Below, in pieces: positions 1,514 through 30,961 of a DNA stretch of 32,000 nt (position 1 is its first letter; every line of letters starts with the position of its first letter). The notes under the pieces are model-generated. The model made no database searches and was not told the DNA's origin. It saw nothing but the letters and a program-made list of their open reading frames with translations. The stretch comes from Gemmata obscuriglobus (GTDB lineage Bacteria; Planctomycetota; Planctomycetia; Gemmatales; Gemmataceae): assembly GCF_008065095.1 (NCBI RefSeq), contig NZ_CP042911.1:6030001-6062000 (forward strand), read 5' to 3'. The translations under genes and the position numbers were made by a program.

Positions 1514-3562
1514 TTACGCCGCGGCCCGCTCGGCCTTCTGGCCGGTCAACGACTCGAACCGCTGGACGATGACGTCGCAATACCGCGGGTCCAGCTCGAG
1601 CAGGGCCGCGTTCCGCCCGGTCTGCTCGGCGGCGGCCAGGGCGGTGCCGGAGCCGGCGAACGGGTCGAGGACGAGGCCGCCGGGCGGGCACGAGTTGTTC
1701 AGCAGGTACGCGAACAGTTCGGCCGGCTTGGGTGTCGGGTGGTCCGGGTTCTTGGCGGGCTTGTCGAACTCGAGCACGGTGGTCTGGGACCGGTCGCCGA
1801 GCCAGGTGTGGGCGGCCCCGTCGATCCAACCGTAGAGACAGTTGTGCACGACGATGCCGTCCGCCACGTAATGCTTGTCCCGCTCGACGTCCATCGACCA
1901 CACCTCGAGGTCGTGCACCCGCTCGAAGCTGGTGGCCGTCAGGTCGCGCCACTCGAACCGCTCGCCGGCGGTGGGCACCGGCACCTGCATCACGCCCGGG
2001 ACCAGGTTGCACGCGGCCACCTGACGCGACTGTCGGCACGAGAAGTTGCCCGGCTCGTTCGCCGCCAGCAGGGGGAGGCCGGCGGACAGCCCGTGGTCCC
2101 GCAGGAGCCGATCGACGCCCGCCCGGATGCGGTCCACACCGAGCCGCTGGTAGATCGCGTCGATGCCCGCCTGGTCCCGCTGCGCCCAGCTCGCACCCGG
2201 GTTCCGCCCGGTCTCCCAGACCGTGGTCGGTATCCCGTACCGGCACGACACCACCTGCTCGGCGATCCGCGCCTCGGTCAGCGTGGCGAACGCGCCCAGC
2301 ACCCACGCCGCGTCGCCGCGCTCCTGCGACAGGCGCACCGACACCCCGAACCCGCGGCTGTTGAACATCCCGCACACGCCCACGCGCCAGCGGTCGCCGC
2401 GCCGCATGAGGTACAGCAGCCCGGCCTTCGGGCGCGCCGGGTCGAACCGCACGGTGAACCGGTGCTCGGGGGTGGCGCGGGTGCGGAACTCCCCCACCTC
2501 GACGCGGTGCAGGTTGCCGGTGTGGCGCCGGCTCGTGATGCCCGTGACGGCCCGCCCGCGCCGGTAGATCTTGGCGTTCCCGAAGCTGACCACGCGGTCG
2601 CCGGGCTGCAGCGACTCGATGGGCACCTGTTCGATCACCGAATCCTCGCGCCACCGCCCCTCCTTGATCACCTTCGCCACCTGGGTACCGGCGGGCTGAC
2701 ACGGTTCGTGCTTCCAATGGTAATCTTGTCGCCCCAGTACGAGGGCCGACTTGACCCACACCAGGCACTGCCGCACCTGGAGCCCGGCGGCCGCGCAGGC
2801 GGTGCGGACGTCGAGCCCGGCGGTGTCCGCGTGCCACACGTAGAACGCCCCGCCCGGCTTCAGGTGGGCCTTGGCGGCGGTCAGGGCGGCGGTGAGGAAC
2901 GCGCGGTACTGTTCGGGGCTCATGTCGTCGTTGGCAATCGTCAGGGCGTCCGCGGTCTTGCCCGAATAGGCGACGTTGTACGGCGGGTCGGTGAGGAGGA
3001 GGTCGGCGGGCCCGTCGGGCAGCAGGCGCGCGAGGTCGGCGGGCTTGGTGGCGTCGCCGCACAGGAGTCGGTGCCGGCCCAGGCGCCACAGGTCCCCGGG
3101 CCGGGTGAGCGGCTCGGCCGGCGGCTCGGGCACCTCGTCGGGATCGCCGGCGGGCGGGGGCTCGGGTGCGGTCAGGAGCCGGAGGACCTCGTCCTCGGGG
3201 AACGCGGTGAGCGACAGGTCGAAGTCGGCGGTCTGGAGCGCGGCCAGTTCGAGTGCCAGGCGCTCGTCGTCCCAGGTGGCGAGTGTGGCGGTCTGGTTGT
3301 CGGCCAGTCGGTACGCCCGGGCCTGGTCGGGTGTGAGCCCGCGGGCCACGTGCACCGGCACCTCGATCAGGCCCAGCTTCAGCGCCGCCTTGTACCGGGT
3401 GTGGCCCACGATCAGCACGTCGCCCTCGTCCACCACGAGCGGCTGTCGGAACCCGAACGCCCGGATGGACGCGGCGACCGCATCGACCGCGGCGTCGTTG
3501 GCGCGGGGGTTGTTCTCGTACGGTTTGATCGAACCGATCGGTCGCATCACCACGTCCATCAT
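1514..3562 (-). CDS. ParB-like nuclease domain / N6-N4 DNA methyltransferase fusion, interrupted by an in-frame intein
   Basis: 682-aa ORF. N-terminal ParB/Srx-like motif VLIVGHTRYKAALKLG. Methyltransferase motifs LLLTDPPYN (DPPY) and DPFAGSGT. GAGGTGG lies just upstream of the ATGATG start. The conserved block ...QDYHWKHEP / CLYGW... is split by 287 extra codons. Confidence 0.9.
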   Translation of the reverse strand: MMDVVMRPIGSIKPYENNPRANDAAVDAVAASIRAFGFRQPLVVDEGDVLIVGHTRYKAALKLGLIEVPVHVARGLTPDQARAYRLADNQTATLATWDDERLALELAALQTADFDLSLTAFPEDEVLRLLTAPEPPPAGDPDEVPEPPAEPLTRPGDLWRLGRHRLLCGDATKPADLARLLPDGPADLLLTDPPYNVAYSGKTADALTIANDDMSPEQYRAFLTAALTAAKAHLKPGGAFYVWHADTAGLDVRTACAAAGLQVRQCLVWVKSALVLGRQDYHWKHEPCQPAGTQVAKVIKEGRWREDSVIEQVPIESLQPGDRVVSFGNAKIYRRGRAVTGITSRRHTGNLHRVEVGEFRTRATPEHRFTVRFDPARPKAGLLYLMRRGDRWRVGVCGMFNSRGFGVSVRLSQERGDAAWVLGAFATLTEARIAEQVVSCRYGIPTTVWETGRNPGASWAQRDQAGIDAIYQRLGVDRIRAGVDRLLRDHGLSAGLPLLAANEPGNFSCRQSRQVAACNLVPGVMQVPVPTAGERFEWRDLTATSFERVHDLEVWSMDVERDKHYVADGIVVHNCLYGWIDGAAHTWLGDRSQTTVLEFDKPAKNPDHPTPKPAELFAYLLNNSCPPGGLVLDPFAGSGTALAAAEQTGRNAALLELDPRYCDVIVQRFESLTGQKAERAAA
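1841..2701 (-). other. intein (287 codons) inside the methyltransferase gene
   Basis: It starts with Cys (TGT at 2699-2701) directly after extein HEP. It ends VVHN (AAC at 1841-1843) followed by +1 Cys (1838-1840). Block-B-like TPEHRF and block F/G-like VWSMDVERDKHYVADGIVVHN are present. It is in frame, and the flanks rejoin into the conserved HEP-(C)LYGW methylase motif. Confidence 0.8.
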
Positions 3563-3631
3563 CCACCTCGGCGCTGGTGCGCAGCATGTCCCTACCCTCC
3601 TACTTCACGGCCCGCGCGCGACCTGTGCAGC

Positions 3632-3705
3632 AAAGTGGGCGGATTTCCGGCACGTCTTTTTCGCCGCTCCGTCGTGCGCACGAAATACTGGAAAAGTGGG
3701 CGAAT
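3632..3705. promoter_or_regulatory. 13-nt direct repeat AAAGTGGGCG[G/A]AT in the divergent promoter region
   Basis: Copies lie at 3632-3644 and 3693-3705 (12/13 identical), 61 bp apart. They sit in the lower-GC 218-bp spacer between the methylase start (3562) and the plus-strand gene start (3781). Confidence 0.3.
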
Positions 3706-3780
3706 GGACTGGATGGGTGTGGGAACGGGAGGTAACTGTGTGTCACCTCAAATCGCCCGCCCCACGAACCGGAGGATACG

Positions 3781-4251
3781 ATGCCCGCGACGAAGACCAA
3801 GGCGGCCAAGAAGGCCACGAGCAGATCTAACGTGAAGGGCGCGAAGCCGAAGCACAGGGCGAAGGACACCGCCGAGTCGGCACCCGCGAAGAAGCTGAGC
3901 GCGTTGGACGCGGCGGCACGGGTGCTGGCCGCGAGCGGCGAGTCGATGACGGCGAAGGAGCTGATCGGGCGGCTGGCGGCACAGGGGCTGTGGTCGAGCC
4001 CGAACGGGAAGACCCCGGACGCCACCCTGTCCGCGGCGCTGCAGCGCGAGATCGCCACCCAGGGGACCGCGAGCCGGTTCCGCAAGACCGCGCCCGGGCG
4101 GTTCGCGGCAACCACCGCGGGCGCCACGGACGCGACAACGGCCCCGAAGACGAAGGGCGCAAAAGTGAAGCCGAAGAAGGCGCCCACGCGCCCGGCCGAA
4201 CCCGAGGCGGGCGCGACGATCCCGGACGGGACGCCCGGCCCGAAAGCCTGA
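3781..4251 (+). CDS. HARE-HTH (RpoE-delta/ASXL-type winged helix) protein with Lys/Ala-rich histone-H1-like tails
   Basis: ATG at 3781 is preceded by GGAGGA. The core LSALDAAARVLAASGESMTAKELIGRLAAQGLWSSPNGKTPDATLSAALQREIATQGTASRFRKTAPGRFA matches the HARE-HTH pattern. Flanking tails are KTKAAKKATSRSNVKGAKPKHRAK and APKTKGAKVKPKKAP. Confidence 0.75.
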   Translation: MPATKTKAAKKATSRSNVKGAKPKHRAKDTAESAPAKKLSALDAAARVLAASGESMTAKELIGRLAAQGLWSSPNGKTPDATLSAALQREIATQGTASRFRKTAPGRFAATTAGATDATTAPKTKGAKVKPKKAPTRPAEPEAGATIPDGTPGPKA

Positions 4252-4291
4252 GCGCACGGTTCCGCATCTGAACGTGCCGGGGCTTCGCAAC

Positions 4292-4313
4292 AACGGCCCG
4301 TCGCGGGGCCGTT
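4292..4313. terminator. hairpin between convergent genes (bidirectional terminator candidate)
   Basis: AACGGCCC (4292-4299) pairs with GGGCCGTT (4306-4313) around a 6-nt loop, followed by TTCGCGTT. It lies between the stop of 3781..4251 (+) and the stop of the replicase (-). Confidence 0.45.
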
Positions 4314-4386
4314 TCGCGTTCCGGCCCGTCTGGCCGACCCGCCGCTCCGAGCGCGCCACGCGGCAACGTCGCGCGAATGGAAGCTC

Positions 4387-7300
4387 TCACCCGCCCCAGG
4401 TGCGGCCGGCGCTCACCTCGACCTCGACCGGCACCGGGTCGATGAGCGGGGCCATCCCGTCCCGCATCGCGTCCCGCACCCAGGCGATGGCTTCGTCCCG
4501 ACGCTCCTCGGAGCACTCGACCACGATCTCGTCGTGCACCAACAGCACGGGGAACGCGTCCGGGCAGGAGTTGCGGCGCGCCCACAGCAGGGCCAGCGCC
4601 CGCTTCAGCCCGTCGGCCCCGGTCCCTTGCACGGGAGTGTTCAACTTCTCGGTGAACGCGCCCACCCCGACCCGCCGGCGCCCCGCCAGGGTGCGCGTTT
4701 GGATGATGCCGTCGGGCACCTTCCGGTGCCACGCACGGAGGCCCGGGTAGGTGCGGAAAAACGCGTCCCGGTGATCCGCCGCCTCGCCCTCGGTCAGCGC
4801 CACCCCGAAGTTCGACGCGGCGTACGCGGCCAGGGCCTTCGCCCCCATGCCGTAAAGAAGCCCGAAATTCAAACTTTTGCTCAACTGACGGTCGGCCTTG
4901 GTGACGTCTGTTTTCCCGAGCACCGCGCGGGCCGTGGTGGTGTGCAGGTCCTCGCCCTTCTGGTACGCGTCGAGCATCCGCTTGTCGCCGGTGATCTTGG
5001 CCGCGATGCGGAGCTCGATCTGGGAGTAGTCGGCCTTCACGAGGACGCGGCCGGGCGGCGTTACGAAGCACCGGCGGAACCGCGGGTCCCGGGGCAGCTG
5101 CTGCAGGTTCGGGTCCTTGCAGCTCATGCGCCCGGAGGCCCCGGCCCCGACCTGCTTCCACGCGGCGTACACGCGGCCGTCATCGGCCACGTGCCGGAGC
5201 CACCCGCGCCCGTACGTGCCCGACAACTTGGACGCGGCCCGGTGCTCGCGCAGCAGAGCCGCGGCCGGGTGGGCCACCGCGGCCAGCGCGTCGTCGCCGG
5301 TCGAGGTCAGGGCCACCCCGGCGGCGGCGAACGCGGCCGTCACCTCGTCGACCGAGTTCCAGTTGGTCACCCCGAACAGGTTGCCCGCGTTGGGCAGCAG
5401 TTCGTCCAGGTGCTCCCGGGCCCGGGCGGCACACGCCTCGGTGTCGGCGGCCACGGCATCCCACGCGGGCCGGTCGAACCCGACCCCGTGCCGCGCGGCC
5501 CACGCGACCGCCGGCAGCGCCGCCATCTCGGCCTCGGCGGTGCCGGTCAGGTGCGCGGCCGCCAGCTCGGGCGCGAGCCGCTCCCACAGCGCGAGGGGTA
5601 ACTCGGCGTCGCGGGCGGCGTACCCCAGGTGCGCGTCGGTGAGCGGCCCCGACCAGTCGGCGGTCTGCAGCCCCTTGTCGAGCTCGAGTCCCAGGTGCCG
5701 GTGGGCCAGGTCCTTCAGTGAGTGGCCGGTGGTGCGGTTCCCGGCGTGCAGCACCTGACTCGCGAGCATGGTGTCCCGCACCCGCCCGGGCACGAACCCG
5801 AGGCGCATCAGGAACGGCAGGTCGAACCCCAGGTTCTGGCCCACCACCTCGACCGCCGTCAGCGCCTCGAGCAGTGGTGCCAGGGCCGCGGCGGGGTCGG
5901 GGAGCGCGAACAGGTCGACGAGGAACGTGCCGCTCGGGGTCGCGAGCGAGAGCAGCCGGACCCGGTCGCGGGCGTGGGACAGGCCCGTGGTTTCGAGGTC
6001 CAGACCGACCAGGGCCGCGGCCCCGGTGACCGCACGTACGACCTCGGCGAGGGCACCCGCCTCGCGCACCCACATCCGACCCCGGTGTGACACAACCCCC
6101 TCGGTGTGACACGACCCGTCGCCGGCGTCGGACCCCGATTCGGGCGCCGGGTCCGAACGCTCGCGGCCGGGTGTGACAGATGACACGACCTTGACCGCGC
6201 CCGCGCCCGGTTCCGGCCCGACGACGGAACTACTTGGTGGCGTGGCGGTTGCGCCGCCAGACCCGCCCGCCGGGGCCGCGGGGCTCCTGTCACACCCGGC
6301 GGTTGTGTCACACCGCGACCCGCCGGCGCCGGCCCCCTCCGCGCCGGCCGGCGCATCGGCCTCGGAGGTTCTGTCATCTGTCACACCGGGCACGAAGGCC
6401 CGCGTCGGGGGGCCGCCGTTGGACCCGCCCGCGACCGGCTCCCAGCGCCCGAACCCGAGCCGCACTAGCCCGTCGAGCGCGGCCTCGGCGGCGGCCGCGG
6501 TGTACCGCTTCTGGTTGGACCGGTGGAGATCCCGGGCCCGCACCGCACCGCCGCACCGGGCGGCAAGCTTGCGCACCGCCTCCAGCAGGTGCCGGGCGCC
6601 CTGCACCTCGGGCGGCTCGGCCAGGGCCAGGTACGCGCGCTCGGCCTCGTCGCGGAACCAGGTGGTCAGCTCGACCGCGGCGCCCATGTCGTCCGCCGCG
6701 ATCGGGTGCTCGTGGGCCCGCGCCTGCAGCCGGCAGCAGTGGAAGATGAGGGCGAACCGCAGGGCGTACCCCTCGAGCTTGCTCATGACCGCGCTCATGT
6801 CCTCGTCGGCGGTCTCCAGGGCCTCGCCGTTGGCGTTGTAGAACGCCACGAACCGGGCCTTGGCGTCGGCGCCCAGGGGGACCAGGTGCGGGGCCGGCTT
6901 GCCGTTGGGCCAGGTGCCGGCGGGGAGCCGGTGCAGGTCGCCCAGGAGCGCGGCGAACGCGCCGCGGGTGGGCTCGTCGATCTCGGCCTCGGTCCACTGG
7001 CGCTTGCGCCACGGGGGCAGCGCCAGAAGCAACCGGGCCAGGAACCCCGAGGCCCGGAACTCCTCGGTGAGGACCCGCGAGAGCACCTTGGGCTGGATGG
7101 TGCCGGTGACGGACACCCCGACCCCGCGGACCCGGACCTCGCGCTTGTCCGGGTCCCCGGTCTTGCGGGTGTAGTTGATGGTGCCGGCGTGGTGCAGCTG
7201 GAGCCACCGGGGCAGGTCGCTGGCCCCGGTCTTGCCGGCGTACTTGACGAAGCTCCCGATCCAGGCGCTCAGCTCGTCCTGGCCGATGACCAGCCCGCGC

Positions 7301-8751
7301 GGGTTCTCCTGGAGCGCGCCGACCAGGGCCTCGATGGTGACGTCGCCCTTGATGAACGCGCGCTTGACCGGTTTGACGGGGCGGGCCCCGGGGTCCGCGC
7401 CGTCTTGCTTGGCGTCCTCCCACTGTTCGAGTTCGACCTCGTACGCGGCCAGCGCCGTTCGGTACTCGGCCTCGAGCCGGTCGTTGATGTCCTCGGCCAG
7501 GTCCTCGACGTCGCGGTACGGCGGGCTCTTGATGGCGCCGGACTTGCCGACGGGCAGGGCCCAGATGTACGGCGGCTCCTTCCACCGCTTCTTGGGGGAC
7601 GCGACGTGGGAGCTGCCGATGGCGGCCCCGAGGGCGGCGAGCGCGGGCAGCGCGCTGTAGGCCCGGTCGCAGTTCATAGCGGCGGCGGTGGCCTCGACGT
7701 AGGCGCGGACCACGGGCGGGAGCAGGTGCGTGGGGAACGGGATGTAGGGCGGGATCTCGGGCGCCGGCGGCCGCGGGGCGGCTCCGGGTTTTCCGCCCGT
7801 TGGTCCGGCCCCCACGGTCGCGCGAGCCGCGGGCGGGTCGGGGACGCCGAGCCACTCCTGGACCCGGGCCACCACGGCGGCGGCGGTGGCGTTGTCGAGG
7901 GACGGGTCGAGCATCTCCTTGAGCGCCGGCAACCCCGTCATCGGCTTGCCGGCCCGGAGCCGCTTGCGGGCGTCGGCCACCGCCCCGGCCCCTTCGCCGG
8001 CGGCGATCTTGGCCACCTTGTCGGGGTCGTTCTTCGCGGCGAACACGGCGGTGACGAACGCCACCGCCCGGGCGTCGTCCTCCCAGCCGGCGCGGGCCAG
8101 CAGGTTGGCGACCAGCAGCACCAGCGCGTGCCGCTCCTGGGGCCGGGCGTACCGGGCCAGCAGCACCGCCGCCCCGACGTGCCGCACCGCGGCGGCAAGT
8201 TCGGCGCCGGCGACCGCCGCAGGCTCGCCCGCGCGGGCCCACTCGAGCCCCTCGCCGCTGGCGTGGAGCGACGGCGGGAACACGGTCTGGAGGTGCTTGA
8301 ACCGCCCCTCGGCCTCGTCCCACTCGGGCCACCGCAGCTCGACGATGGTGGCCCGGTCCCCGGACCGCACCGGGTCGAGTAACTTGGCGAACGCGGCGGT
8401 GCGGTCGGTGACGGCGTACAGCCGGTGGGTGGTCTCGCCGCCGCGCCCGAACGCGCTGTTCGTGGCGGGGAGCAGATGGGGGCCGGCGACCGCGGCCTCG
8501 CCGCAGTCCAGGTCGACGTCGGCCAGGCCGGCGGAGTTGGGGCCCAGCTTGACCCCGACGTTGCGGCCGGCGAAATGTTCGGGGGCGGCGGTGCCGCCGG
8601 GCCAGAACCGGGCGTCCGGGTGCTTGCCCGGCTTGGGACAGTCGGGGCGCCCGCACGAGCAGGCGCCCCGGTCGAGGTCGGGGCGGTGCACCGGGACCGT
8701 GCACCAGCCACGGGCCCGGTACCGCGCGACGGCTTCGGCGACGGTGCTCAT
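4387..8751 (-). CDS. fused replicase: AEP PrimPol + DUF3987-type P-loop ATPase + DnaQ-like 3'-5' exonuclease + family A DNA polymerase
   Basis: ATG at 8749-8751 is preceded by GGAGG and overlaps the upstream stop as ATGA. There is no stop codon down to 4387. PrimPol motifs: CSCGRPDCPKPGKHP, DVDLD, THRLY. ATPase motifs: PVGKSG, VIGQDELS. The low-complexity linker spans ~6076-6429. Exo motifs: DLETTGL, NLGFDLPFL, YAARDAE. PolA motifs A/B/C: DYSQIELRIAA, KSLNFGLLYG, LLVHDEIVVE. Confidence 0.9.
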   Translation of the reverse strand: MSTVAEAVARYRARGWCTVPVHRPDLDRGACSCGRPDCPKPGKHPDARFWPGGTAAPEHFAGRNVGVKLGPNSAGLADVDLDCGEAAVAGPHLLPATNSAFGRGGETTHRLYAVTDRTAAFAKLLDPVRSGDRATIVELRWPEWDEAEGRFKHLQTVFPPSLHASGEGLEWARAGEPAAVAGAELAAAVRHVGAAVLLARYARPQERHALVLLVANLLARAGWEDDARAVAFVTAVFAAKNDPDKVAKIAAGEGAGAVADARKRLRAGKPMTGLPALKEMLDPSLDNATAAAVVARVQEWLGVPDPPAARATVGAGPTGGKPGAAPRPPAPEIPPYIPFPTHLLPPVVRAYVEATAAAMNCDRAYSALPALAALGAAIGSSHVASPKKRWKEPPYIWALPVGKSGAIKSPPYRDVEDLAEDINDRLEAEYRTALAAYEVELEQWEDAKQDGADPGARPVKPVKRAFIKGDVTIEALVGALQENPRGLVIGQDELSAWIGSFVKYAGKTGASDLPRWLQLHHAGTINYTRKTGDPDKREVRVRGVGVSVTGTIQPKVLSRVLTEEFRASGFLARLLLALPPWRKRQWTEAEIDEPTRGAFAALLGDLHRLPAGTWPNGKPAPHLVPLGADAKARFVAFYNANGEALETADEDMSAVMSKLEGYALRFALIFHCCRLQARAHEHPIAADDMGAAVELTTWFRDEAERAYLALAEPPEVQGARHLLEAVRKLAARCGGAVRARDLHRSNQKRYTAAAAEAALDGLVRLGFGRWEPVAGGSNGGPPTRAFVPGVTDDRTSEADAPAGAEGAGAGGSRCDTTAGCDRSPAAPAGGSGGATATPPSSSVVGPEPGAGAVKVVSSVTPGRERSDPAPESGSDAGDGSCHTEGVVSHRGRMWVREAGALAEVVRAVTGAAALVGLDLETTGLSHARDRVRLLSLATPSGTFLVDLFALPDPAAALAPLLEALTAVEVVGQNLGFDLPFLMRLGFVPGRVRDTMLASQVLHAGNRTTGHSLKDLAHRHLGLELDKGLQTADWSGPLTDAHLGYAARDAELPLALWERLAPELAAAHLTGTAEAEMAALPAVAWAARHGVGFDRPAWDAVAADTEACAARAREHLDELLPNAGNLFGVTNWNSVDEVTAAFAAAGVALTSTGDDALAAVAHPAAALLREHRAASKLSGTYGRGWLRHVADDGRVYAAWKQVGAGASGRMSCKDPNLQQLPRDPRFRRCFVTPPGRVLVKADYSQIELRIAAKITGDKRMLDAYQKGEDLHTTTARAVLGKTDVTKADRQLSKSLNFGLLYGMGAKALAAYAASNFGVALTEGEAADHRDAFFRTYPGLRAWHRKVPDGIIQTRTLAGRRRVGVGAFTEKLNTPVQGTGADGLKRALALLWARRNSCPDAFPVLLVHDEIVVECSEERRDEAIAWVRDAMRDGMAPLIDPVPVEVEVSAGRTWGG
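6084..6387. repeat. array of six GGTGTGACA[C/G] sites, three forward then three inverted, inside the replicase linker
   Basis: Forward copies lie at 6084-6093, 6103-6112 and 6170-6179, plus half-site TGACAC at 6181-6186. Inverted copies lie at 6287-6296, 6305-6314 and 6378-6387, plus half-site TGTCAT at 6372-6377. 6083-6096 is the perfect reverse complement of 6302-6315 (14/14). 6170-6185 is the perfect reverse complement of 6372-6387 (16/16). Confidence 0.7.
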
Positions 8752-8942
8752 CGGTCGCCTCCGCTCGGGCCGAGCAGGTGCACCAGGTCGCTCGCGGCCC
8801 AGCACCGGGCGCCGTCGAGGGCCCGACACTCGGTGGCGTGTGGGGCCAGTCGCGGGAGCTCGTTGGGATCGATCTCCAGGGCCCACAGGTCATCTTCGCT
8901 CAGGTAGTCGTCGGGCACGAGAACCTCCTTCTCGGCGCGCAC
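8748..8942 (-). CDS. hypothetical acidic protein (64 aa)
   Basis: The ORF has normal composition (MRAEKEVLVPDDYLSEDDLWALEIDPNELPRL...). Its TGA overlaps the replicase ATG (ATGA at 8748-8751), implying translational coupling. Confidence 0.5.
   Translation of the reverse strand: MRAEKEVLVPDDYLSEDDLWALEIDPNELPRLAPHATECRALDGARCWAASDLVHLLGPSGGDR

Positions 8943-12502: not shown

Positions 12503-12506
<4 letters not shown>
12087..12506 (-). CDS. ParB/KorB-like helix-turn-helix protein, recombinase-associated (139 aa)
   Basis: These are the last 139 codons of the track ORF 12087..13163. ATG at 12504-12506 overlaps the recombinase TGA (ATGA). HTH segment DQAELARLGHVTRARVSQIMALIHLAPDLIETVLFLP is typical of small proteins found beside serine recombinases. 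Confidence 0.7.
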
Positions 12507-14106
<1,600 letters not shown>

Positions 14107-14110
<4 letters not shown>

Positions 14111-14604
14111 GTGCCCTCCGGCTTGTTGAGCTTGAAGAAGTGGAACCCGTTGAGGTGGGTCCCGGTGACCGCCGCGGCGACCGCGCTGAGGGAGGCGAAC
14201 GTCCGGCCGTCGTACTCGAACCCGCTGGCCAGCACCAGGACCTGAACGTCGGCGCCCTTGTACGTGCGGGTGATCACGGTGCCGGGCGGGGGCAGTCGCG
14301 GGTCACTCGCGTGCGTCGGCACGGTGCCGGTGCGGACCGGCCCGGGCGCGGGTTCGTCGGCGTGGCCCTTGGGCGGGATCAAGCGCAGGTCCGCGTCTCG
14401 GGCCAGCTCGGCGGCCCGGGCTTGCGCGCGGGCGCTGAGCCCGCCCTCGGCCAGGGCCTGGAGCCGCCACGCGATCCTTCGGACGAGCCACGTGCGGTTG
14501 CCCGACGCGGTGGGCTCGCCGAACACCTCCGCGTACCGCGCCCGCAGCTCTTTCGGGGTCAGCCGGCGCAGCCCGGCCAGTTCCTTCGCGACGTCGATCG
14601 GCAC
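14107..14604 (-). CDS. DUF2924-family protein (recombinase-associated)
   Basis: Motifs LTPKELRARYAEVFGEPTASGNRTWLVRRIAWRLQALAEGGLSARAQARAAELA and C-terminal YKGADVQVLVLASGFEYDGRTFASLSAVAAAVTGTHLNGFHFF match my memory of DUF2924. The GTG at 14602-14604 lies 6 nt after GGAGGT. An alternative ATG sits at 14698-14700. Its TGA overlaps the recombinase ATG (ATGA at 14107-14110). Confidence 0.75.
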
Positions 14605-14650
14605 CTCGTGACCTCCACGGAAAAGCTGGCGATCTCGGCTCTCGGCGGCG

Positions 14651-14860
14651 TTAACCGCCGGTCCCAGTGACGCTCTTTTCGCGCGCGTCCGCAAGCTCAT
14701 TCGTGCCAAAATCTGAGGTTCCGGCGGTGCCGGTGGAGGGCGGTGATTCGTGTACGAGCAGGGCCGAGCCGATGCGCACGAGCCCGGTGGCGAGGAGGCG
14801 CGCCAGCTCGCGGGCGCGCTCGTCGGGGGTGAGGGTAACGGGGTTGCGGGTGGAAGGCAT
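14651..14860 (-). CDS. small hypothetical protein (69 aa) heading the recombinase operon
   Basis: ATG at 14858-14860 is preceded by GAGGTG. The sequence MPSTRNPVTLTPDERARELARLLATGLVRI... has high third-position G/C in its first ~35 codons. Confidence 0.4.
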   Translation of the reverse strand: MPSTRNPVTLTPDERARELARLLATGLVRIGSALLVHESPPSTGTAGTSDFGTNELADAREKSVTGTGG

Positions 14861-14954
14861 CGGGGCACCTCGGGGGTGGACCCCAGCGGCCTTCGCGGTG
14901 CGACCGGCGTGCTGGCGGAAATGAGCGAGAGAAGTCTCTACCTGTTAATTACAC

Positions 14955-15108: not shown

Positions 15109-15223
15109 CCGACTGGTTACCGGGGCGTTCCAAATTTAATTGTTTCCACATGCCGAACGATGTCTAATTTCTCATGTTTTCTCGCCCGGCCGGTACTGGC
15201 TGAGCGGCCCCGAGGAAGCCATC

Positions 15224-18200
15224 ATGCCACGCGTCGAGTGCTCGTCTTGCGGGATGCGGGTCACCGTTCCGGTCGAGCGCCGGCGCGTCAGGTGCCCGGA
15301 GTGCGGTGCGCTCGTAACCGCCCCCGGAGGCTCGGAAGAAGCGGTCGCCCGGAAAGCGCCGGGCAAACGGGTCCGGACCGAGGCGCCGGGCATGGCAGAC
15401 GAGAGCGATGACCGCCCGCGCGCCCGGCGCCTGCCGGGGAGGCGTGCAACCTACGCGATACTGGCCGGCGCCGGCGTGCTGGCGCTGGTGTGCGCGTGCG
15501 CCGCGGTGCTGGTGGCGATCGCGCCGCTCAGACCGAGGCCGCCGGCCGTAGCCGGCGGCGCGGACCCGCTCGCGGCCCCGAACCCGCCACCCGTTCCCGA
15601 GTCACCGACGGTCGAGCCACCGACGGCCCCGAACCCGCCCGCTCCCGAGCCACCGCCGGTTAAGCCACCGGTGGCCCCGAGCTTGCCGCCCGCTCCCGAG
15701 CTACCGTCGGTCGAGCCGACGGCCGCTCCGGTCCGTGGACCGGCGAGCCGGCCCAAGACCCCACCGAACCCGTTGGACCCGCTTCACCCCTACCTCGTCC
15801 TCGACGCGAACGGTCACACGGCTCAGGTCCAAGGCGTGGCAATGACCCCCGACGGGCGCCGCGTGGTGACCGCCTCCCGGGACCGTACCGTGCGCGTTTG
15901 GGACGTAACGACCGGCGAGACGTTGCGCACCTTCCGGTACCCGACCGGTCCCGGGAACGAGGGGATGGTGCAGGCCCTGGCGCTGTCACCGGACGGTCGG
16001 CTCTGTGCCGCTGCGCCGTTCCCGCTCGATCTCGGTCAGGCCGGGCGCCCCGCGCTCGTCACCGACATGGAGACCGGGCGGGTGGTGGCCACCCCCAAGG
16101 GGCACCGGAACACGGTGACCGCGCTGGCTTATTCTCCGGACGGGCGGTTCTTGGGTGCGGGCTCGGGCGACCACGACATCTCCGTCTGGGACGCGCGGCT
16201 CTGGAAGCCGGTGGGGCTGTTGCGCGGGCACTCGGCTCCGATCACGGGGCTGTCTTTTTCGCCCAACGGCCTCCGGAGCGTGAGTGTCGCCGCCAACCGC
16301 ACCGCGCTGCTGTGGTCCGGGGACCGAACCCAGAAGCCGTTCGTCGAGCTGCGGGACGGCGATCACCAGGCCCGCAGCGTGGCCTGGAGCCCGGACGGTC
16401 GCACGGTCGCCGTCGGCAACCACGACGGCACCATCTCGCTGTGGAACCCGGACGGGACGCTGCGTAAGACGCTGACCGGGCTGCGCAACGACATCCTGAA
16501 CCTGGCGTTCACCCCGGACAGTCACTCCCTCCTCCAGTGTGGGGTCGCACCGGGAGCGCTCAACCGCGACCGCTTCGCCTGCACGATCATTGACGCCGCG
16601 ACCGGCGAGGAACGCTCCCGGTTCGAGGGGCACACGAATTTGGTCTCGGCCGCGTGCCTGTCGGCCGACGGGGCGCTCGCGGTTACGGCCGGGGGAAACG
16701 ACCACGAGGTGCACGTGTGGCGGGTGAGCGACGGGTCCCCGGTCCAAACACTCGCCGGCCGGGGGCGCGCCGGGTGGACGGTCGGCTGGAGCCCGGACGG
16801 GCGCTCGGTCGCCTGGGGTAACTCGAACGCGCGGGGCGCGACGGCGCTCGAACGCGCGTTCGAGTTGAGCGAGTTGCGGTTCGCGGGACCGCCGAACGGC
16901 TCGTACTCGGGGGCGGTACTGACCCGCGGGGGCCGGACCCTGGAACTGACTCCGAACCGGGAGATGGCGATCAAGAACGGCTCCCGAACCGAGCTGCTGT
17001 ACCGGGACACCGAACTGAGCACCAGCAACTCGGTATTCTGTTTCACGTGGCTCCCGGACGGGCGGATCGTGGTCGGCTCTCAGTTCGGCCTCCAGCTGTT
17101 CGACCCGGACACCAACCAGATCGTCCGCAGTTACGCGGGCTCCACGGACGCTACCACCGCCATCGCGCTCTCCCCGGACGCACGGTACTTCGCCACGACA
17201 TCCGGTGACATGATCATTCGGGTGTGGCGGGTGGACCAGCGGACCCCGGTGCTGTCGCTGTTCTGCGCGGGTTCGGACTGGGTGGCATGGACCCAGGAAG
17301 GGTTGTACGCCGCGTCCCCGAACGGGGAGCGGCTGATGGGCTGGCAGGTGAACACCGGTGGTGCCACCGGGCTCGGTACCGCGTACTCGGCCGCCCAGTT
17401 CCGCAAGTCGCTGTACCGCCCCGACGTGATCGGTCGGGTGCTCCGCGACGGGGGCGCGGCGGCGGCGCTGGAGCGGGCCGGTGTCGCCGGGGCCGACGGG
17501 CTGCAGGTCGCCCGGTTGCTCCCCCCAGCGGTGGCACTCACCAGCCCGTCCGGGCTCGGCGTGAGCCCGGTCGCCGGACCGAAGTTCGCCGTGAAGGCGT
17601 CGGCCCAGAGCGTCGGGACGCACCCGGTTACCGCGCTCCGTCTGCTGGTCAACGGGCGCCCGTATGGGGGCGCGTCCGGCGTTCACACGGTCGCCGCGCC
17701 GCGGCTCGGCGAGGTGCGGGCCGACTGGTCGGTGGAGCTGCCGCCCGGGTTGTACAACCTGGCGGTCGTGGCCGAGAGTGCCGTGAGCCGGGCCGTTTCG
17801 CCACCGGTCGGGGTGCAGGTCGGCGGGCCGACCGGTGACGAGCGCCCGACGCTGTACCTGCTGGCGGTGGGGATCAGCGACTACCCCGGTCCGATGAAGC
17901 TCAACTACGCGGCCGCGGACGCAGACGCCCTGGCTCGTGCGTTCAAGGCGCACGGCAAGGGGGCGTTCCGCGCGGTGGAGGTGAAACTGATCCGGAACAA
18001 GGAGGCGACCCGCGGTGCGATCGAGCAGGGGCTCGGCTGGCTGTCCGGGAAGATGACCCACCGGGACGTCGGTGTGGTGTTCTTCTCCGGACACGGCGGG
18101 CGCGACGAGAAGGGCAACCTGTTTTTGATCACGGCGGACGTGGACCCCAAAAACATCGCCGGCACCTGTCTCCCGGGGGACGCGGTGAAGCGGAAGCTGG

Positions 18201-18577
18201 GTGGCACGCCGGGGCGCGTGATCGCAATCCTCGACGCGTGTCACTCGGGTGCCGCGGCAGACCGGCCCACGCACCCGTCCGCCACGGACGACCTGGTCCG
18301 CGACCTCGTCTCCGAGGATTACGGGATCGTGGTCATGAGCTCGTCCCAGGGTTGGGAGTACTCGCTCGAGAGCGCGGTTGTGGGGCAGGGCTTTTTTACC
18401 GCCGGGCTCATCGATGGGCTTTCGGGCAAAGCCGACACGAACGGCGACGGGTTCGTGTACCTGAACGAATTGGCCACGTACGCGGCTCAGCGCGTACGGG
18501 TGTTGAGCGATGGTTCGCAGAATCCGGTCACTGCCAAGCCGCCGTCGATTCGATCCTTCCCGCTTTCCAAGCCGTGA
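15224..18577 (+). CDS. membrane-anchored zinc-ribbon / Pro-rich linker / WD40 beta-propeller / caspase-like (peptidase C14) protein
   Basis: ATG at 15224 is preceded by GAGGAAG. The zinc ribbon is CSSCG...CPECG. The TM helix is YAILAGAGVLALVCACAAVLVAIAPL, preceded by an Arg-rich stretch. Many WD40 units are present (VRVWD, ISVWD, ISLWN, VHVWR, IRVWR). The C-terminal caspase fold (17843-18574) has FFSGHG (His at 18092-18094) and ILDACHSG (Cys at 18239-18241). Confidence 0.9.
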   Translation: MPRVECSSCGMRVTVPVERRRVRCPECGALVTAPGGSEEAVARKAPGKRVRTEAPGMADESDDRPRARRLPGRRATYAILAGAGVLALVCACAAVLVAIAPLRPRPPAVAGGADPLAAPNPPPVPESPTVEPPTAPNPPAPEPPPVKPPVAPSLPPAPELPSVEPTAAPVRGPASRPKTPPNPLDPLHPYLVLDANGHTAQVQGVAMTPDGRRVVTASRDRTVRVWDVTTGETLRTFRYPTGPGNEGMVQALALSPDGRLCAAAPFPLDLGQAGRPALVTDMETGRVVATPKGHRNTVTALAYSPDGRFLGAGSGDHDISVWDARLWKPVGLLRGHSAPITGLSFSPNGLRSVSVAANRTALLWSGDRTQKPFVELRDGDHQARSVAWSPDGRTVAVGNHDGTISLWNPDGTLRKTLTGLRNDILNLAFTPDSHSLLQCGVAPGALNRDRFACTIIDAATGEERSRFEGHTNLVSAACLSADGALAVTAGGNDHEVHVWRVSDGSPVQTLAGRGRAGWTVGWSPDGRSVAWGNSNARGATALERAFELSELRFAGPPNGSYSGAVLTRGGRTLELTPNREMAIKNGSRTELLYRDTELSTSNSVFCFTWLPDGRIVVGSQFGLQLFDPDTNQIVRSYAGSTDATTAIALSPDARYFATTSGDMIIRVWRVDQRTPVLSLFCAGSDWVAWTQEGLYAASPNGERLMGWQVNTGGATGLGTAYSAAQFRKSLYRPDVIGRVLRDGGAAAALERAGVAGADGLQVARLLPPAVALTSPSGLGVSPVAGPKFAVKASAQSVGTHPVTALRLLVNGRPYGGASGVHTVAAPRLGEVRADWSVELPPGLYNLAVVAESAVSRAVSPPVGVQVGGPTGDERPTLYLLAVGISDYPGPMKLNYAAADADALARAFKAHGKGAFRAVEVKLIRNKEATRGAIEQGLGWLSGKMTHRDVGVVFFSGHGGRDEKGNLFLITADVDPKNIAGTCLPGDAVKRKLGGTPGRVIAILDACHSGAAADRPTHPSATDDLVRDLVSEDYGIVVMSSSQGWEYSLESAVVGQGFFTAGLIDGLSGKADTNGDGFVYLNELATYAAQRVRVLSDGSQNPVTAKPPSIRSFPLSKP
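15575..15721 (+). repeat. three tandem 48-51-nt (16-17 aa) Pro-rich coding repeats
   Basis: The units are 15575-15625, 15626-15673 and 15674-15721. Each starts GCCCCGA. They encode APNPPPVPESPTVEPPT / APNPPAPEPPPVKPPV / APSLPPAPELPSVEPT. Confidence 0.7.
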
Positions 18578-19473: not shown

Positions 19474-21049
19474 GTAAGCGTTCACGGGTGATGCGGCAGT
19501 GTATCAACAGTTGGCGAGTAGCGGATTCACAACGTTCTGTTGTTGAGCTTCAGCTGGAACGAGCGTCGGTGCCTTCGCGCCGGTCCGGTGTGCGGTGACG
19601 GCGTCGATGAGGAACGCCAAGACGTTGCGCTTCTGGCGGCGGCACGAGGCGATCACCGTGAGGATTCGTTCCACGAACCGGCTCCCGCGTTCGCTGTCGG
19701 TCCCGAAGCTGGTTTTGCGCCAGCACACGGCGTGACGCACCTCACGCTCGGCCGCGTTGTTGGTCGGTTCCACGCCGACGACACGCGCGAACGTCCACAA
19801 CGACGCCTCGACCGACAACAGTTCCGCGCAGGTCGTGGCGGTCTTGGCGCAGCCGCACGCCGCCCCGTTCCGCAGGTGCGTGCCGACCTGACGACGCAAC
19901 GCGGGGATGTAGGTCGAGCGACATGTGGACCGCGCGAGGGTTCCGTCCCGCACCCGATACCAGTTCTCGAACAGGGCGTCCGAACACGCCAACAGAGCCG
20001 CGCCGATCGCCTGTCCGGAACCGCCCCGGTCGATCATCGCCTGGAAATCGCGTCGCAGGTGCGCCCAGCAGAGTTGACGCTTGTACTTGTCGAGGTGCGT
20101 GTACACCGGATACCGGTCCGTCGTATGCACGGCCGTGGACCCGGCACGCAGGTCATCAAAGGCGGCCCGGCCCCGGGTCCGGCGGATCAGGAACGCCACC
20201 ACGAACGTGGTCACGGCGGCCCACAGCCAGGCCCGCTGACGCCCCTGCTTCCAACCGGTCTCGTCCACGTTGGCCGGGTGCCCGCGGGTGTACACCAGGG
20301 CCTGTTCGGCCACCGGCTTCAGCGCCTCGGCGGTTCGGTGCTGGAGCTTGCACACCATGGCCGGGCTCAGGGGCAGGCCGAACAGATCGTCGAACAGTTG
20401 GCTCGTGCCCCGCTTGCCCAGACGGCACGAGCCGGTGAGAAGCGCGGCCACCGCCTGCGCCCGGGGGCCGTATCCGGTGCGCGCCTCCGACGGCACCGCG
20501 GGCACCGTGGTCGTGCCGCAGTGGGGGCACCGGAGCCGGTGGCACCGATACTCGGTCACGTGGGGTTTGATAACGGGCAACTCGTGGACCTGATGAATGG
20601 CCGGAGCCGGATCGTCCCCGGCCAGCGACCGCGAGCAGTCCCGGCACACGGACGGCTTGAGGGTCCGGATCTCATCGGGTGGCAGGAGCGTGCGCTCGGC
20701 TTTGGGATGCCCCGGTTGCCCGCCCCGACGCTTCCCCGAAGGGGCCTTGGGCGGGGCCAGTTTCACCTGCGGAGGATCGGACGAGGGCGGCTTCGACGAG
20801 TTGGTGGAGCTCTGGTTGAGTCGGGCCTTGAGTTCGGCGACCTCGGCCACCAGAGCAGTGATCGTGGCCTCCAAGGCGCGAATATACGCCACCACCGCCG
20901 GTGGTAAGTTATCGGGCAGTTCCGGCGGTTGAGGAACAGGCGTCATGACGTCTGCTCGATTACGGAACATGCCCGCTTGTGGCAACCGCGTATCCAAACG
21001 GGCTAAAATGACGGGCAAAAGCGGGTGGCGCACCCCCATGAACGCTTAC
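19474..21049 (-). mobile_element. IS66-family insertion sequence (single-ORF type), apparently intact
   Basis: The terminal inverted repeat GTAAGCGTTCA lies at 19474-19484, with its reverse complement at 21039-21049 (11/11). The 8-bp target duplication AAAAGTGG lies at 19466-19473 and 21050-21057. The element is 1576 bp. Confidence 0.9.
19504..20946 (-). CDS. IS66-family transposase
   Basis: 480 aa from the ATG at 20944-20946. It has an N-terminal zipper (LPPAVVAYIRALEATITALVAEVAELKARL), the NSSKPPSSD motif and a CPHCG zinc finger, then a DDE-type core. The track ORF start at 21039 lies inside the terminal repeat. Confidence 0.9.
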   Translation of the reverse strand: MTPVPQPPELPDNLPPAVVAYIRALEATITALVAEVAELKARLNQSSTNSSKPPSSDPPQVKLAPPKAPSGKRRGGQPGHPKAERTLLPPDEIRTLKPSVCRDCSRSLAGDDPAPAIHQVHELPVIKPHVTEYRCHRLRCPHCGTTTVPAVPSEARTGYGPRAQAVAALLTGSCRLGKRGTSQLFDDLFGLPLSPAMVCKLQHRTAEALKPVAEQALVYTRGHPANVDETGWKQGRQRAWLWAAVTTFVVAFLIRRTRGRAAFDDLRAGSTAVHTTDRYPVYTHLDKYKRQLCWAHLRRDFQAMIDRGGSGQAIGAALLACSDALFENWYRVRDGTLARSTCRSTYIPALRRQVGTHLRNGAACGCAKTATTCAELLSVEASLWTFARVVGVEPTNNAAEREVRHAVCWRKTSFGTDSERGSRFVERILTVIASCRRQKRNVLAFLIDAVTAHRTGAKAPTLVPAEAQQQNVVNPLLANC

Positions 21050-21754
21050 AAAAGTGGACTGACGAGTCGCAAGATCGAGTACGGGGTGATCCCACCGAAG
21101 GCCGATGGGGAGTTCGTGGCCCACATGGAGGTGGTCCTGGACACGTACACCACGCCCTACGATTGCCGGTACCCGGTGCTGAACAGGGACGAGCAGCCAA
21201 TCCCGTTGCTGAAGGAGACGCGGGTCCCGATCCCGGCCACGACGAATCACCCGCGGCGGGTCGATTACGAGTACGAGCGGGCCGGGACGGCGAGCATCTT
21301 CATGTTCGGTGAGCCCCTGGCCGGGTGGCGCCAGGGGCGGGGCCGGGAGCACCGGGCCAAGGTCGACTGGGCGGTGGAGATGGGGGCGCTGTTGCGGGGC
21401 CGGTACGCGGCCGCCGAGAAGGTGATCCGGGTGTGCGACAACCGGAACACGCACACCATCGGGGCGTTCTACGAGGCATTCGATCCGGTCACGGCCCGGG
21501 CCCTGGTGCGTCGGCTCGAGTTCCGCCACACGCCCAAGCACGGCAGCGGGCTCAACATCGCCGAGAACGAGCTGAGCGCGAGGACCCGGCAATGCGTGCA
21601 CGGCCGCCGGTTCGCGACGATCGAGGCGTTGCGCGCGGAGACGGTCGCGTGGCACGAGTACGTCAACGACAAGCCGCGCGGCGTCGAGTGGCAATTTCGC
21701 ACCGACGACGCGAGAACCAAACTGAACTCGCTCTACCCTAAAATTAAAACCTGA
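21050..21754 (+). pseudogene. IS630-family transposase, C-terminal DDE part (separated from its N-terminus by IS66)
   Basis: It reads KSGLTSRKIEYGVIPPKADGEFVAHMEVVLDTY...VCDNRNTHT...FRHTPKHGSGLNIAENELS...FRTDDARTKLNSLYP. It is in the same frame as the 19034 ATG but offset from the middle segment (the A7 run at 19463-19469). Confidence 0.8.
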
Positions 21755-30600: not shown

Positions 30601-30961
30601 TGATGGCCACGACCCGCTGCAACTTCTCGTCGAACGCGCGGAACACCACCCCGGCGCCGCCGCGGCCCACCACCTCGAGCACCTCATAGTGGCCGAGTCG
30701 CCCGAGTGCGTCCGCTCGCGCCGGGGGGCCGAGGACGGAGAGCGTGTGTTCGTCGGTCGACCCCTGCGGGGTCATCAAGTCGCCCGCGAGTTGCTCGGCC
30801 ACGGGCACGTTCAGGAAGGTGTCCGAGGTGCTGGCCCGGAGCAGTGCGTCGATCCGGCCGCGGAGGGCCTGGTCGCCGCCGCACGCGGCGTCCAGGTACG
30901 CGCCCCGGTCGGCCGGCGCGGGCCGGTTCAGGGCCTCGAGGAAAATGTCGCGCTCGCGCAC
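27698..30961 (-). CDS. Ser/Thr protein kinase - transmembrane helix - WD40 repeat protein
   Basis: GTG start at 30959-30961. Kinase motifs: GRGGAGVVFRA...AIKVL, HRDVKPANILL, DFGLAR, GTPAFMSPEQ. TM helix: VVLGLVACATATLLAF. The C-terminal ~600 aa carry WD40 units (VRLWN, LRVWD, VALWD, VRTWD). Confidence 0.9.
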   Translation of the reverse strand: MRERDIFLEALNRPAPADRGAYLDAACGGDQALRGRIDALLRASTSDTFLNVPVAEQLAGDLMTPQGSTDEHTLSVLGPPARADALGRLGHYEVLEVVGRGGAGVVFRAFDEKLQRVVAIKVLSPALAGSGSARQRFVREAQIAAAVVHENVIDIHAVEPAGPVPYLVMSFVDGPTLQAKVVRDGPLPVRDVLRIGLQIASGLAAAHEQGLIHRDVKPANILLERAPDRVKITDFGLARAADDASLTQSGLIAGTPAFMSPEQADGSPLDHRTDLFSLGSVLYTLCAGRPPFHAASAMAVLRRVCEAHPTPLPEVNPGVPRWLAAVVAKLHAKAPADRYQSAAEVAAVLARHLDRLQKGEGEPARAPRARRPWFRSSVVLGLVACATATLLAFAPGRDRGAVPEGISIAEPPAPPGPAQAAPTLHPPGPARPHPLEALAAAGSGTGLPPWVVIALSNPLPFRVPETPEAASWPVRSADGERLAVLCGERVLILDARSGVTVQTLTGNVREPGPREPVHRGTRAAFSPDGKWFVSGGGDSAVRLWNVATGKLERMLEEHKGRVFAAAFSPDGKWLATAGDAPLTAGEPSPAVIVWTVDDRSPQPPEVKLHRVLSRLPQRLTHLAFRPDGKRLAVTSFFDGCDVYVPDAGGRVATLRGLKRYEAVAWSADGSRLAVADDEGTLVHEAAPGTEDSFKVLHALPAPGKGLLAFAPDGHGLLTAGGFYFNNSGQRFTRWNLATGKPVATHPVRVTGSNLFFEVSADGRTVFVVAAHPRWDRVRVFDAPSGTEVYPPGDDDTAVAAVALSPDARAVATAGADGTLRVWDFERLAAGGSAGPRFLGKRALPARALAFSPDGKLLATFGPRDGTVALWDAATGRHLRELPGNSGDGAGLAFDPSGAVLAVGGSEAGAVNLYDPRTGARAGELRFGLGRIQELAFSGAGRALAARDGQVVQVIDPKTGAAGGAISTSWQRCLAVSPGGNQVAVANVATNFDVVRRWDAATGDSREALRGHKGSILALAFHTLGDRLVTASADGTVRTWDADAAGRCRNTTELHALGAPTCAAVAGHSRYAAVGLRDGRVAIIRLPE

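Follow-up and report, generated by a model that had tools for sequence, protein, structure and literature searches.

A class 1 intein predicted in a Gemmata ParB-methyltransferase carries a conserved central domain that may be a divergent GIY-YIG-type homing nuclease

A 32,000-nucleotide stretch of the Gemmata obscuriglobus genome (assembly GCF_008065095.1, contig NZ_CP042911.1, positions 6,030,001 to 6,062,000; this whole stretch is called the window, and positions are counted from its first letter) contains an open reading frame (ORF) for a ParB-type DNA methyltransferase that is split by a long in-frame insert. As far as sequence analysis reaches, the insert is established as a class 1 intein, with splicing itself presumed, and we consider both this assignment and its placement in a lineage centered on UvrD-like helicases to be highly likely. 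Between the two halves of the predicted splicing domain lies a strongly conserved domain. Our leading reading, to which we give a probability of about 0.45, is that this domain is an active homing endonuclease with a very divergent GIY-YIG-type fold, fused in frame within a contiguous intein. Coordinates of the features discussed are collected in Table 1.

The host is, by its sequence, a ParB-fused, beta-class N6/N4 DNA methyltransferase in which DPPY precedes FxGxG. Pfam N6_N4_Mtase (PF01555) matches both flanks of the insert with 82 bits, ParB_N matches the precursor with 26.7 bits against a cutoff of 26.3, and the precursor was assigned to the PHROGs DNA methyltransferase family phrog_498 (E = 3.5e-147). 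Since the DPPY motif lies before the insert and the S-adenosylmethionine (AdoMet)-binding motif DPFAGSG after it, the insert falls between the catalytic and AdoMet-binding halves of the enzyme. The junctions in the ORF read GRQDYHWKHEP/CQPAGTQV and HYVADGIVVHN/CLYGWIDG, where a slash marks a junction or insertion point here and below. The original prediction, an in-frame insertion of 287 codons splitting DYHWKHEP/CLYGW, proved exact in its coordinates and junctions. Alignment with intein-less ParB-methyltransferases placed the boundaries at the same residues: the phage methyltransferase MW202867 is 52% identical, aligns on both sides of the insert, and is uninterrupted at DYQWQHEP/CLYGWK. A scan of one genome per species yielded 80 related genomic loci, and the alignment is continuous across the junction (HEP/C[LFWY]Y) in 79 of them.

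Residues at the ends of the insert are those of a class 1 intein. It starts with Cys and ends with His-Asn followed by Cys, as the original prediction had stated, and C1, H286-N287, and C+1 are all present. The block-B-like TPEH and the terminal VWSMDVE and GIVVHN blocks, also named beforehand, were located at intein residues 77–80, 267–273 (VWSMDVE), and 277–287 (HYVADGIVVHN). Conservation of the splicing residues across the family is high for C1 (69 of 69 sequences), T77 (172/176), H80 (177/177), and N287 (162/162), with H286 found in 142 of 168; the +1 residue is Cys in 95 sequences and Ser in 77. The TIGR01443 profile for the intein C-terminal region scores 22.4 bits on the insert, above its cutoff of 15.6. 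The class 1 reading thus draws on the splicing residues, TIGR01443, a predicted HINT fold, and homology to an annotated phage intein.

The fold was predicted with AlphaFold2 from an alignment of 11 sequences (predicted local distance difference test [pLDDT] of 81.6, predicted template modeling score [pTM] of 0.78). Matches of this model to the PDB in Foldseek were exclusively HINT or intein structures, and they bridged a gap of ~150 residues in the middle of the query. They include PI-SceI domain I, BIL2, the hedgehog autoprocessing domain, and the Mtu RecA, NpuDnaB, gp41-1, and Prp8 inteins, with target-normalized template modeling scores of 0.76 for Mtu RecA, 0.77 for gp41-1, and 0.82, the highest, for BIL. 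In the predicted structure of the intein, a HINT fold is interrupted by an additional domain. Other searches were less productive, and two points count against the assignment: Pfam Intein_splicing (PF14890) stayed below threshold on the insert alone (17.6 bits against a cutoff of 35.8), and a phmmer search of the intein sequence against the PDB returned nothing. Of the intein profiles, TIGR01443 recognized the insert above its cutoff and PF14890 did not for the sequence alone. The intein N-terminal profile (NCBIfam TIGR01445 type) gave no match on the insert, and a single-sequence PHROGs search of the intein produced only one stray match (E = 0.004).

If the assignment is correct, a 74.7-kDa ParB-methyltransferase precursor carrying a class 1 intein would be translated and would follow the standard class 1 pathway, with an N-S acyl shift at Cys1, trans-thioesterification to Cys+1, and cyclization of Asn287 assisted by His286. 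A 32-kDa intein (32.0 kDa by computation) would be released, and HEP would be joined to CLYGW in an active methyltransferase with a predicted length of 395 amino acids and a predicted mass of 42.7 kDa. We infer this pathway from the conserved residues and the predicted fold. The domain of ~137 amino acids, which occupies the canonical endonuclease position, would then act in homing, as the nuclease by which the element invades intein-free alleles. Such a nuclease would most likely be of a very divergent GIY-YIG type, and this is the weakest step of the explanation.

Relatives of the intein are numerous and are found in more than one host gene. A full HMMER scan of 1.84 billion representatives recovered at least 1459 clusters matching the intein at E ≤ 1e-3 and 1040 at E ≤ 1e-10, and the lineage is recognizable by a CQPxGT start and an ADG[IL]VTHN end. 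When 48 relatives were scanned, UvrD helicase domains were identified in 33, AAA_30 in 11, and N6_N4_Mtase in seven. Half of these relatives (24/48) match Pfam Intein_splicing, with a best E value of 2e-22; LAGLIDADG_3 and HNH_3 were each found in one of the 48, in whole-protein scans that do not give the location of the match within the protein. Helicase-hosted members are inserted in motif III (VGDxxQ/CQPxGT ... THN/SIYxF). The annotated helicase intein of Bacillus phage SPO1 gp34.33 (mat_peptide, NC_011421) is homologous to the insert over its full length, central domain included, with 30% identity across all 287 amino acids (tblastn, E = 2e-28). The SPO1 intein shares the CQPxGT start and the THN end with the insert and falls in the same size class (275 and 287 amino acids, respectively). 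The host of SPO1-like and phi92-like phage inteins is motif III of a UvrD-like helicase, whereas the insertion here is at HEP/CLYGW of a methyltransferase, and the +1 residue is often Ser in the SPO1-type helicase inteins but Cys in Gemmata.

The closest counterparts in architecture are in prophages of Streptococcus suis. With the insert alone as query, tblastn identified full-length matches in S. suis prophage methyltransferases (38% identity, E = 1e-53). The prophages concerned (phiD12, phi-SsuSH0918_comEC, Javan558, and others) encode the same ParB plus N6_N4 architecture, with the intein at the identical site (HEP/C ... HN/CLYGW) and the central domain likewise present, but they come from phages of Firmicutes with a GC content of 41%, compared with 72% for the Gemmata genome. 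Streptococcus phage phi-SsuSH0918_comEC (positions 2983–5094) and 14 further S. suis phage records contain a 285-amino-acid intein bounded by HEP/CQPAGT and THN/CLYGW. In these records the product, ~700 amino acids long, is labeled as an adenine-specific methyltransferase, some matches span more than one annotated feature, and the intein is flagged in none. A 137-amino-acid mini-intein with the same termini is present at the equivalent methyltransferase site in another genome (P0010; GCA_036704275.1, contig JBAJGS010000910.1, positions 3001–4272). Its junctions are AHEW/CQPAGT and THN/CFYGW, and the central domain is absent, so this sequence marks the point at which that domain is inserted. 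The host is a prophage-like methyltransferase that lacks a ParB domain and is encoded three genes ahead of a GpA-type terminase, and the mini-intein would be an endonuclease-free stage of the element. We consider it highly likely that the lineage resides mostly in motif III of UvrD-like helicases and that one branch has colonized the HEP/C site of phage and prophage N6/N4 methyltransferases.

Within the genus, some alleles carry the intein and others do not. The best matches to the exteins are all from Gemmata or other Gemmataceae (Planctomycetota). In Gemmata algarum JC673 the exteins are 91% and 94% identical, the intein is absent, and the neighborhood is the same, with a primase-polymerase gene, the methyltransferase, and two small downstream ORFs. 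The insert is also absent from Gemmata sp. IIL30 (exteins 86% and 80% identical), where the junction reads ...CACGAACCG/TGTTTATAC... without interruption. A Gemmata metagenome-assembled genome (MAG L048), by comparison, bears an intein that is 77%–82% identical in spite of exteins that are only 74% and 81% identical. Presence of the intein is out of step with relatedness of the exteins, as one would expect if the intein were mobile or had been precisely lost several times. The GC content at third codon positions (GC3) is the same in the intein (0.96) and in its host gene; the intein therefore did not come recently from a low-GC donor.

Two of these alleles have further peculiarities. The MAG L048 copy (NZ_JBHYGG010000115.1, ~3930–3945) is the only other intein-bearing Gemmata allele that was found; its sequence contains a frameshift (+1/-1) near intein residue 243 (QVPVP/TSGE), which puts the HINT C-terminal lobe and the C-extein out of frame and is either real decay or an error in the MAG assembly. 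The closest intein-free allele, from G. algarum JC673 (locus L049, 3856–3864; 91% nucleotide identity), has Val rather than Cys at +1 and five substitutions within nine nucleotides at the insertion point (CCG TGT CTC versus CCT GTT TTA). This Val allele could be unable to support splicing and could perhaps escape recognition by a homing enzyme. A homing-resistant reading is weakened by the occurrence of Ile at +1 in other intein-free homologs, and the substitution may be ordinary variation.

Central domains from 152 homologs are near-invariant at Y97, M99, R106, G108, R123, W133, P210, and N232. Y97 is present in 151 of the 152, R123 in all, and E148 in 148, and both E127 and E148 exceed 90%. 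In the predicted topology, a beta-hairpin comes first, then a helix-strand-helix segment and a final pair of helices, and a dedicated model of the domain has a pLDDT of 81.3. The original prediction that the central part has no recognizable LAGLIDADG or HNH motif was correct: no LAGLIDADG_3/Hom_end or HNH Pfam profile matched the insert or any of 31 diverse central domains. That prediction had left open a degenerate or unfamiliar endonuclease domain; the second term fits a conserved and undescribed domain, and the first does not. Judged by this constraint, the central domain is a conserved domain outside every library searched and not degenerate filler. A word-indexed search with the central-domain profile found four fragments and no free-standing homolog, and Pfam gave a weak HTH_33 match (E = 0.21) over the two C-terminal helices. 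By eye, the beta3-helix motif also resembles AP2-type DNA-binding domains, a resemblance that drew no support from Pfam or Foldseek and that counts only within the non-nuclease alternative discussed below.

Several comparisons point to GIY-YIG enzymes. The motifs occur in GIY-YIG order, with a Tyr on the first strand and R-[VI]-G on the second, an Arg in the helix after them, and finally a further strand with xEAxxxE...P behind it. The secondary-structure order and motif register agree with those of I-TevI/I-TevII, Seg, and the UvrC N-terminal domain, but the central domain has a much shorter helix region linking beta2 to beta3. When the domain model was searched against BFVD with Foldseek, the top matches were to copies of this domain carried by helicases and by a virome methyltransferase. 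Ranks 4–50 were individually weak (E = 0.03–0.35); among the 22 functionally named proteins in this tail, homing or intron endonucleases account for 19, with 12 of them labeled explicitly as GIY-YIG or GrpIintron_endo.

Profile comparisons gave signals in the same direction. A reference alignment of 26 SegA-like sequences was assembled from T4 and its IMG/VR relatives, and hhalign aligned the central domain to it with a score of 21.65 (P = 0.005, probability 6.9%). None of 200 column or block shuffles of this comparison exceeded 17.3, and unrelated families scored 8–13 against the central domain. The comparison with UvrC N-terminal domains was weaker (P = 0.048, probability 1.1%). Extended Seg and UvrC alignments place the domain in one register, in which Y97 corresponds to the GIY Tyr, RVG to YIG, and E148 to the catalytic Glu, although these are low-confidence hhalign registers. 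In hmmsearch with a hidden Markov model of the central domain, T4 I-TevII was matched with P = 9e-5, compared with 8.8e-4 for the best of 520 shuffles, and the match covers the strand-helix segment with the catalytic Glu of I-TevII. A scan for I-TevII relatives returned T4 itself alone.

A number of results weigh against a GIY-YIG nuclease and, in part, against a nuclease of any kind. In the positive control, Seg and UvrC, which are both GIY-YIG families, aligned with a score of 30.8 (P = 8e-5), above the scores of the central domain, and an unrelated pair, Seg and ParB, reached 18.4 in hhalign. The structural models of the intein and of the central domain were built on shallow alignments of 7–11 sequences. 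The second Tyr of the motif (in YIG) is Arg in the central domain, and neither PF01541 nor TIGR01453 gave a central-domain match. Pfam contained no family for the 31 central domains at E ≤ 1, and a consensus of the domain had no match at E ≤ 10 in Pfam, NCBIfam, or PHROGs. A sequence-profile search of the PDB gave no match, and among the 50 Foldseek PDB matches listed for the domain model none was better than E = 1.3. The GIY-YIG signals agree with one another, and each is weaker than a true match between subfamilies, so together they are suggestive only. On this evidence, a GIY-YIG origin of the putative nuclease has slightly less than an even chance, and a homing nuclease of some kind is rated somewhat above that.

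A 2006 survey reported that GIY-YIG enzymes were not found in inteins (PMC1564403), and a free-standing GIY-YIG gene is known between the halves of a split intein (PMC7891396). A 2025 preprint describes intein enzymes of the LAGLIDADG, HNH, Vsr-like, and EndoVII-like families and names GIY-YIG once in a list of endonucleases associated with inteins (bioRxiv 10.1101/2025.01.02.630785). In the literature searched, the documented settings of GIY-YIG enzymes were group I introns, free-standing genes, and the interval between the halves of a split intein, and no example in frame within a contiguous intein was found.

The alternative that survives best accepts a genuine splicing HINT domain and takes the central domain for something other than a nuclease, be it a dead remnant or a module with a role in DNA binding or structure; in that case the element would either be immobile or depend for its mobility on an endonuclease acting in trans. 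It gains from the failure of profile libraries and of PDB sequence and structure searches to name a nuclease family, from the sub-significance of all the GIY-YIG signals, and from the weak HTH_33 match. We nevertheless regard it as unlikely. E127, E148, R106, R123, and Y97 are invariant in 152 diverged homologs and look catalytic rather than merely structural, the domain sits at the canonical insertion point for endonucleases, and the BFVD matches are enriched for nucleases and not for DNA-binding proteins. Presence and absence among close alleles, together with the spread over phyla and host genes, argue for active mobility.

It is considerably less probable that the insert is a decayed or non-splicing derivative of an intein, in a methyltransferase that is either inactive or tolerates it as a surface loop. 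Besides the frameshift in the L048 allele, a relative (P0001) has a 16-residue deletion within the central domain, and a non-splicing insertion is documented in phage methylases. This is the ShiLan domain of actinophage methylases, an in-frame insertion that hides an out-of-frame HNH (PMC11855218). Like the Gemmata insert, ShiLan is in frame, patchily distributed, and located in a conserved region of a phage DNA methylase. It has no splicing domain, however, whereas the Gemmata insert has a predicted HINT fold and splicing residues, and no nuclease was found in its alternative frames. The Gemmata ORF is intact, with C1, T77, H80, H286, N287, and C+1 present and conserved across the family. The insert also splits a motif that is kept in all homologs, between the DPPY and FxGxG halves, which makes tolerance unlikely, and the match in GC3 between insert and gene is consistent with long-term coding selection.

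An endonuclease hidden in another frame or on the antisense strand, with the in-frame central domain as a mere spacer, was rejected as very improbable: there are precedents in actinophage inteins and ShiLan (PMC11855218; bioRxiv 10.1101/2025.01.02.630785), long ORFs overlap the insert (1732–2364 and 2163–2567 on the forward strand, 1990–2196 on the reverse strand), and an antisense ORF of 147 amino acids extends over the end of the S. suis intein, but the alternative-frame ORFs of the window and of S. suis lack domain matches (the best Pfam E value, 0.033, belongs to the S. suis antisense ORF), long ORFs should arise by chance at a GC content of 72%, and the in-frame domain is conserved as a protein with invariant residues from 41%-GC S. 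suis phages to 72%-GC Gemmata.

The original prediction called a methyltransferase an uncommon host for an intein, and this statement has to be softened in view of N6_N4 methylase inteins already cataloged in mycobacteriophages. Such inteins were described in mycobacteriophages as DNMT-1 and DNMT-2 by Kelley et al. in 2016 (PMC5050341), and that of Dorothy gp75 was studied further by Gosselin et al. in 2023 (PMC9957025). As in Gemmata, they occupy conserved motifs of phage N6/N4 methyltransferases and have a patchy distribution. The insertion sites differ. The intein of Dorothy gp75 (DNMT-2; AWLYG/CLTADT ... FITGN/SGFPKS) lies ~15 residues upstream of the Gemmata site, and that of BuzzLyseyear gp72 (DNMT-1; QMHV/CLARGS ... 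VVKN/CPLQF) is at a position equivalent to HPT/PKP in the Gemmata protein. Both are longer (327–331 amino acids) than the 287-amino-acid Gemmata intein, and no significant similarity to it was identified outside the last ~34 residues (E = 3e-4). The Dorothy-type intein has been described as matching LAGLIDADG inteins (PMC5050341, PMC9957025). The Gemmata element is a new host gene and insertion site for a lineage already annotated in phage helicases, within a protein class known to harbor inteins. No earlier account of a methyltransferase intein at the HEP/C site, or of its central domain, was found in the literature searched, where absence is no proof.

An integrated mobile element seems to occupy the left ~15 kb of the window. 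Encoded there are the methyltransferase, a HARE-HTH protein, a 1499-amino-acid fusion protein, helix-turn-helix (HTH) proteins, and a large serine recombinase with a DUF2924 partner; the last two probably mark the integration end. The fusion protein consists of Prim-Pol (residues 55–223), DUF3987 (406–752), a 3'-5' exonuclease (940–1108), and a family A DNA polymerase (1194–1498), and by these domain assignments it is a complete primase-to-polymerase replication module in one polypeptide, adjoining the methyltransferase. The G. algarum element has a counterpart that is 71% identical. The methyltransferase has no visible restriction endonuclease partner beside it, as would fit an orphan enzyme of the phage type. 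Homologs of the HARE-HTH protein were also observed near the methyltransferase in two other Gemmataceae loci. The remainder of the window is typical planctomycete chromosome and includes a protein with TSP3 repeats. The GC content dips to 0.64–0.69 at a pair of transposases, compared with ~0.73 elsewhere in the window. Two giant WD40 proteins, neighbors of an extracytoplasmic function (ECF) sigma factor, are typical of Gemmata-like genomes and unrelated to the intein.

Table 1. Features of the methyltransferase gene, its predicted intein, and the rest of the window (positions within the window; aa, amino acids)
Feature	Position	Strand	Remarks
Precursor ORF, predicted ParB_N plus N6/N4 DNA methyltransferase with intein	1514–3562	-	682 aa, 74.7 kDa
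N-extein	2702–3562	-	ORF aa 1–287, ends in conserved DYHWKHEP; Pfam, homolog alignment
ParB_N domain	3314–3541	-	ORF aa 8–83; Pfam
DPPY catalytic motif	2978–2989	-	aa 192–195; motif in N-extein
Intein, predicted class 1	1841–2701	-	287 aa (287 codons), ORF residues 288–574
Intein C1	2699–2701	-	First intein codon
Block B, TPEH	2462–2473	-	Intein residues 77–80
Terminal His-Asn of intein	1841–1846	-	
Predicted HINT N-terminal lobe	2435–2701	-	Intein aa 1–89, opens with family motif CQPxGT
Central inserted domain	2024–2434	-	Intein aa ~90–226 (~137 residues)
Central-domain Y97	2411–2413	-	
Central-domain R106-V-G108	2378–2386	-	
Central-domain R123	2333–2335	-	
Central-domain E127	2321–2323	-	
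Central-domain E148	2258–2260	-	
Predicted HINT C-terminal lobe	1841–2023	-	Intein aa 227–287, blocks F/G (VWSMDVE...HYVADGIVVHN)
C-extein	1517–1840	-	ORF aa 575–682, opens with +1 Cys (1838–1840) of CLYGW
AdoMet-binding motif DPFAGSG	1646–1666	-	ORF aa 633–639, in C-extein
HARE-HTH protein	3781–4251	+	Lys/Ala-rich N-terminal tail; between methyltransferase and polymerase genes, on the opposite strand
PrimPol-DUF3987-exonuclease-PolA fusion	4387–8886	-	Single 1499-aa ORF; domain matches
Large serine recombinase	12503–14868	-	Resolvase, Recombinase, and Zn_ribbon_recom; beside upstream DUF2924 protein
Giant WD40 protein	15140–18577	+	Ends in caspase (Peptidase_C14) domain
IS66-family transposase and DDE_3 transposase	19504–21754	- (IS66), + (DDE_3)	Head-to-head overlap; GC dip
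Giant WD40 protein	27698–30961	-	Starts with Ser/Thr kinase domain
Planctomycete-type ECF sigma factor	31061–31618		

These findings identify an unflagged intein in a whole set of phage and prophage ParB-methyltransferases whose records show a plain methyltransferase or several separate features; the set includes well-studied S. suis prophages and gut-virome contigs, and such inteins distort gene calls, protein-family models, and size expectations. HEP/C adds a third, independent site to those at which inteins occur in N6/N4 methylases, and the occurrence of one lineage in both helicase motif III and a methyltransferase clearly exemplifies an intein that has moved to a different host gene. The central domain, widespread and under strong conservation, is missing from every domain library that was searched; should it prove to be a nuclease, it would provide site-specific homing enzymes of a new kind. 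If it is of the GIY-YIG type, it would possibly be the first GIY-YIG-type endonuclease fused in frame in an intein, and a new catalytic family beside LAGLIDADG, HNH, Vsr-like, and EndoVII-like enzymes. For the question of homing, Gemmata offers a natural substrate pair in the form of intein-bearing and intein-free alleles that are 91% identical.

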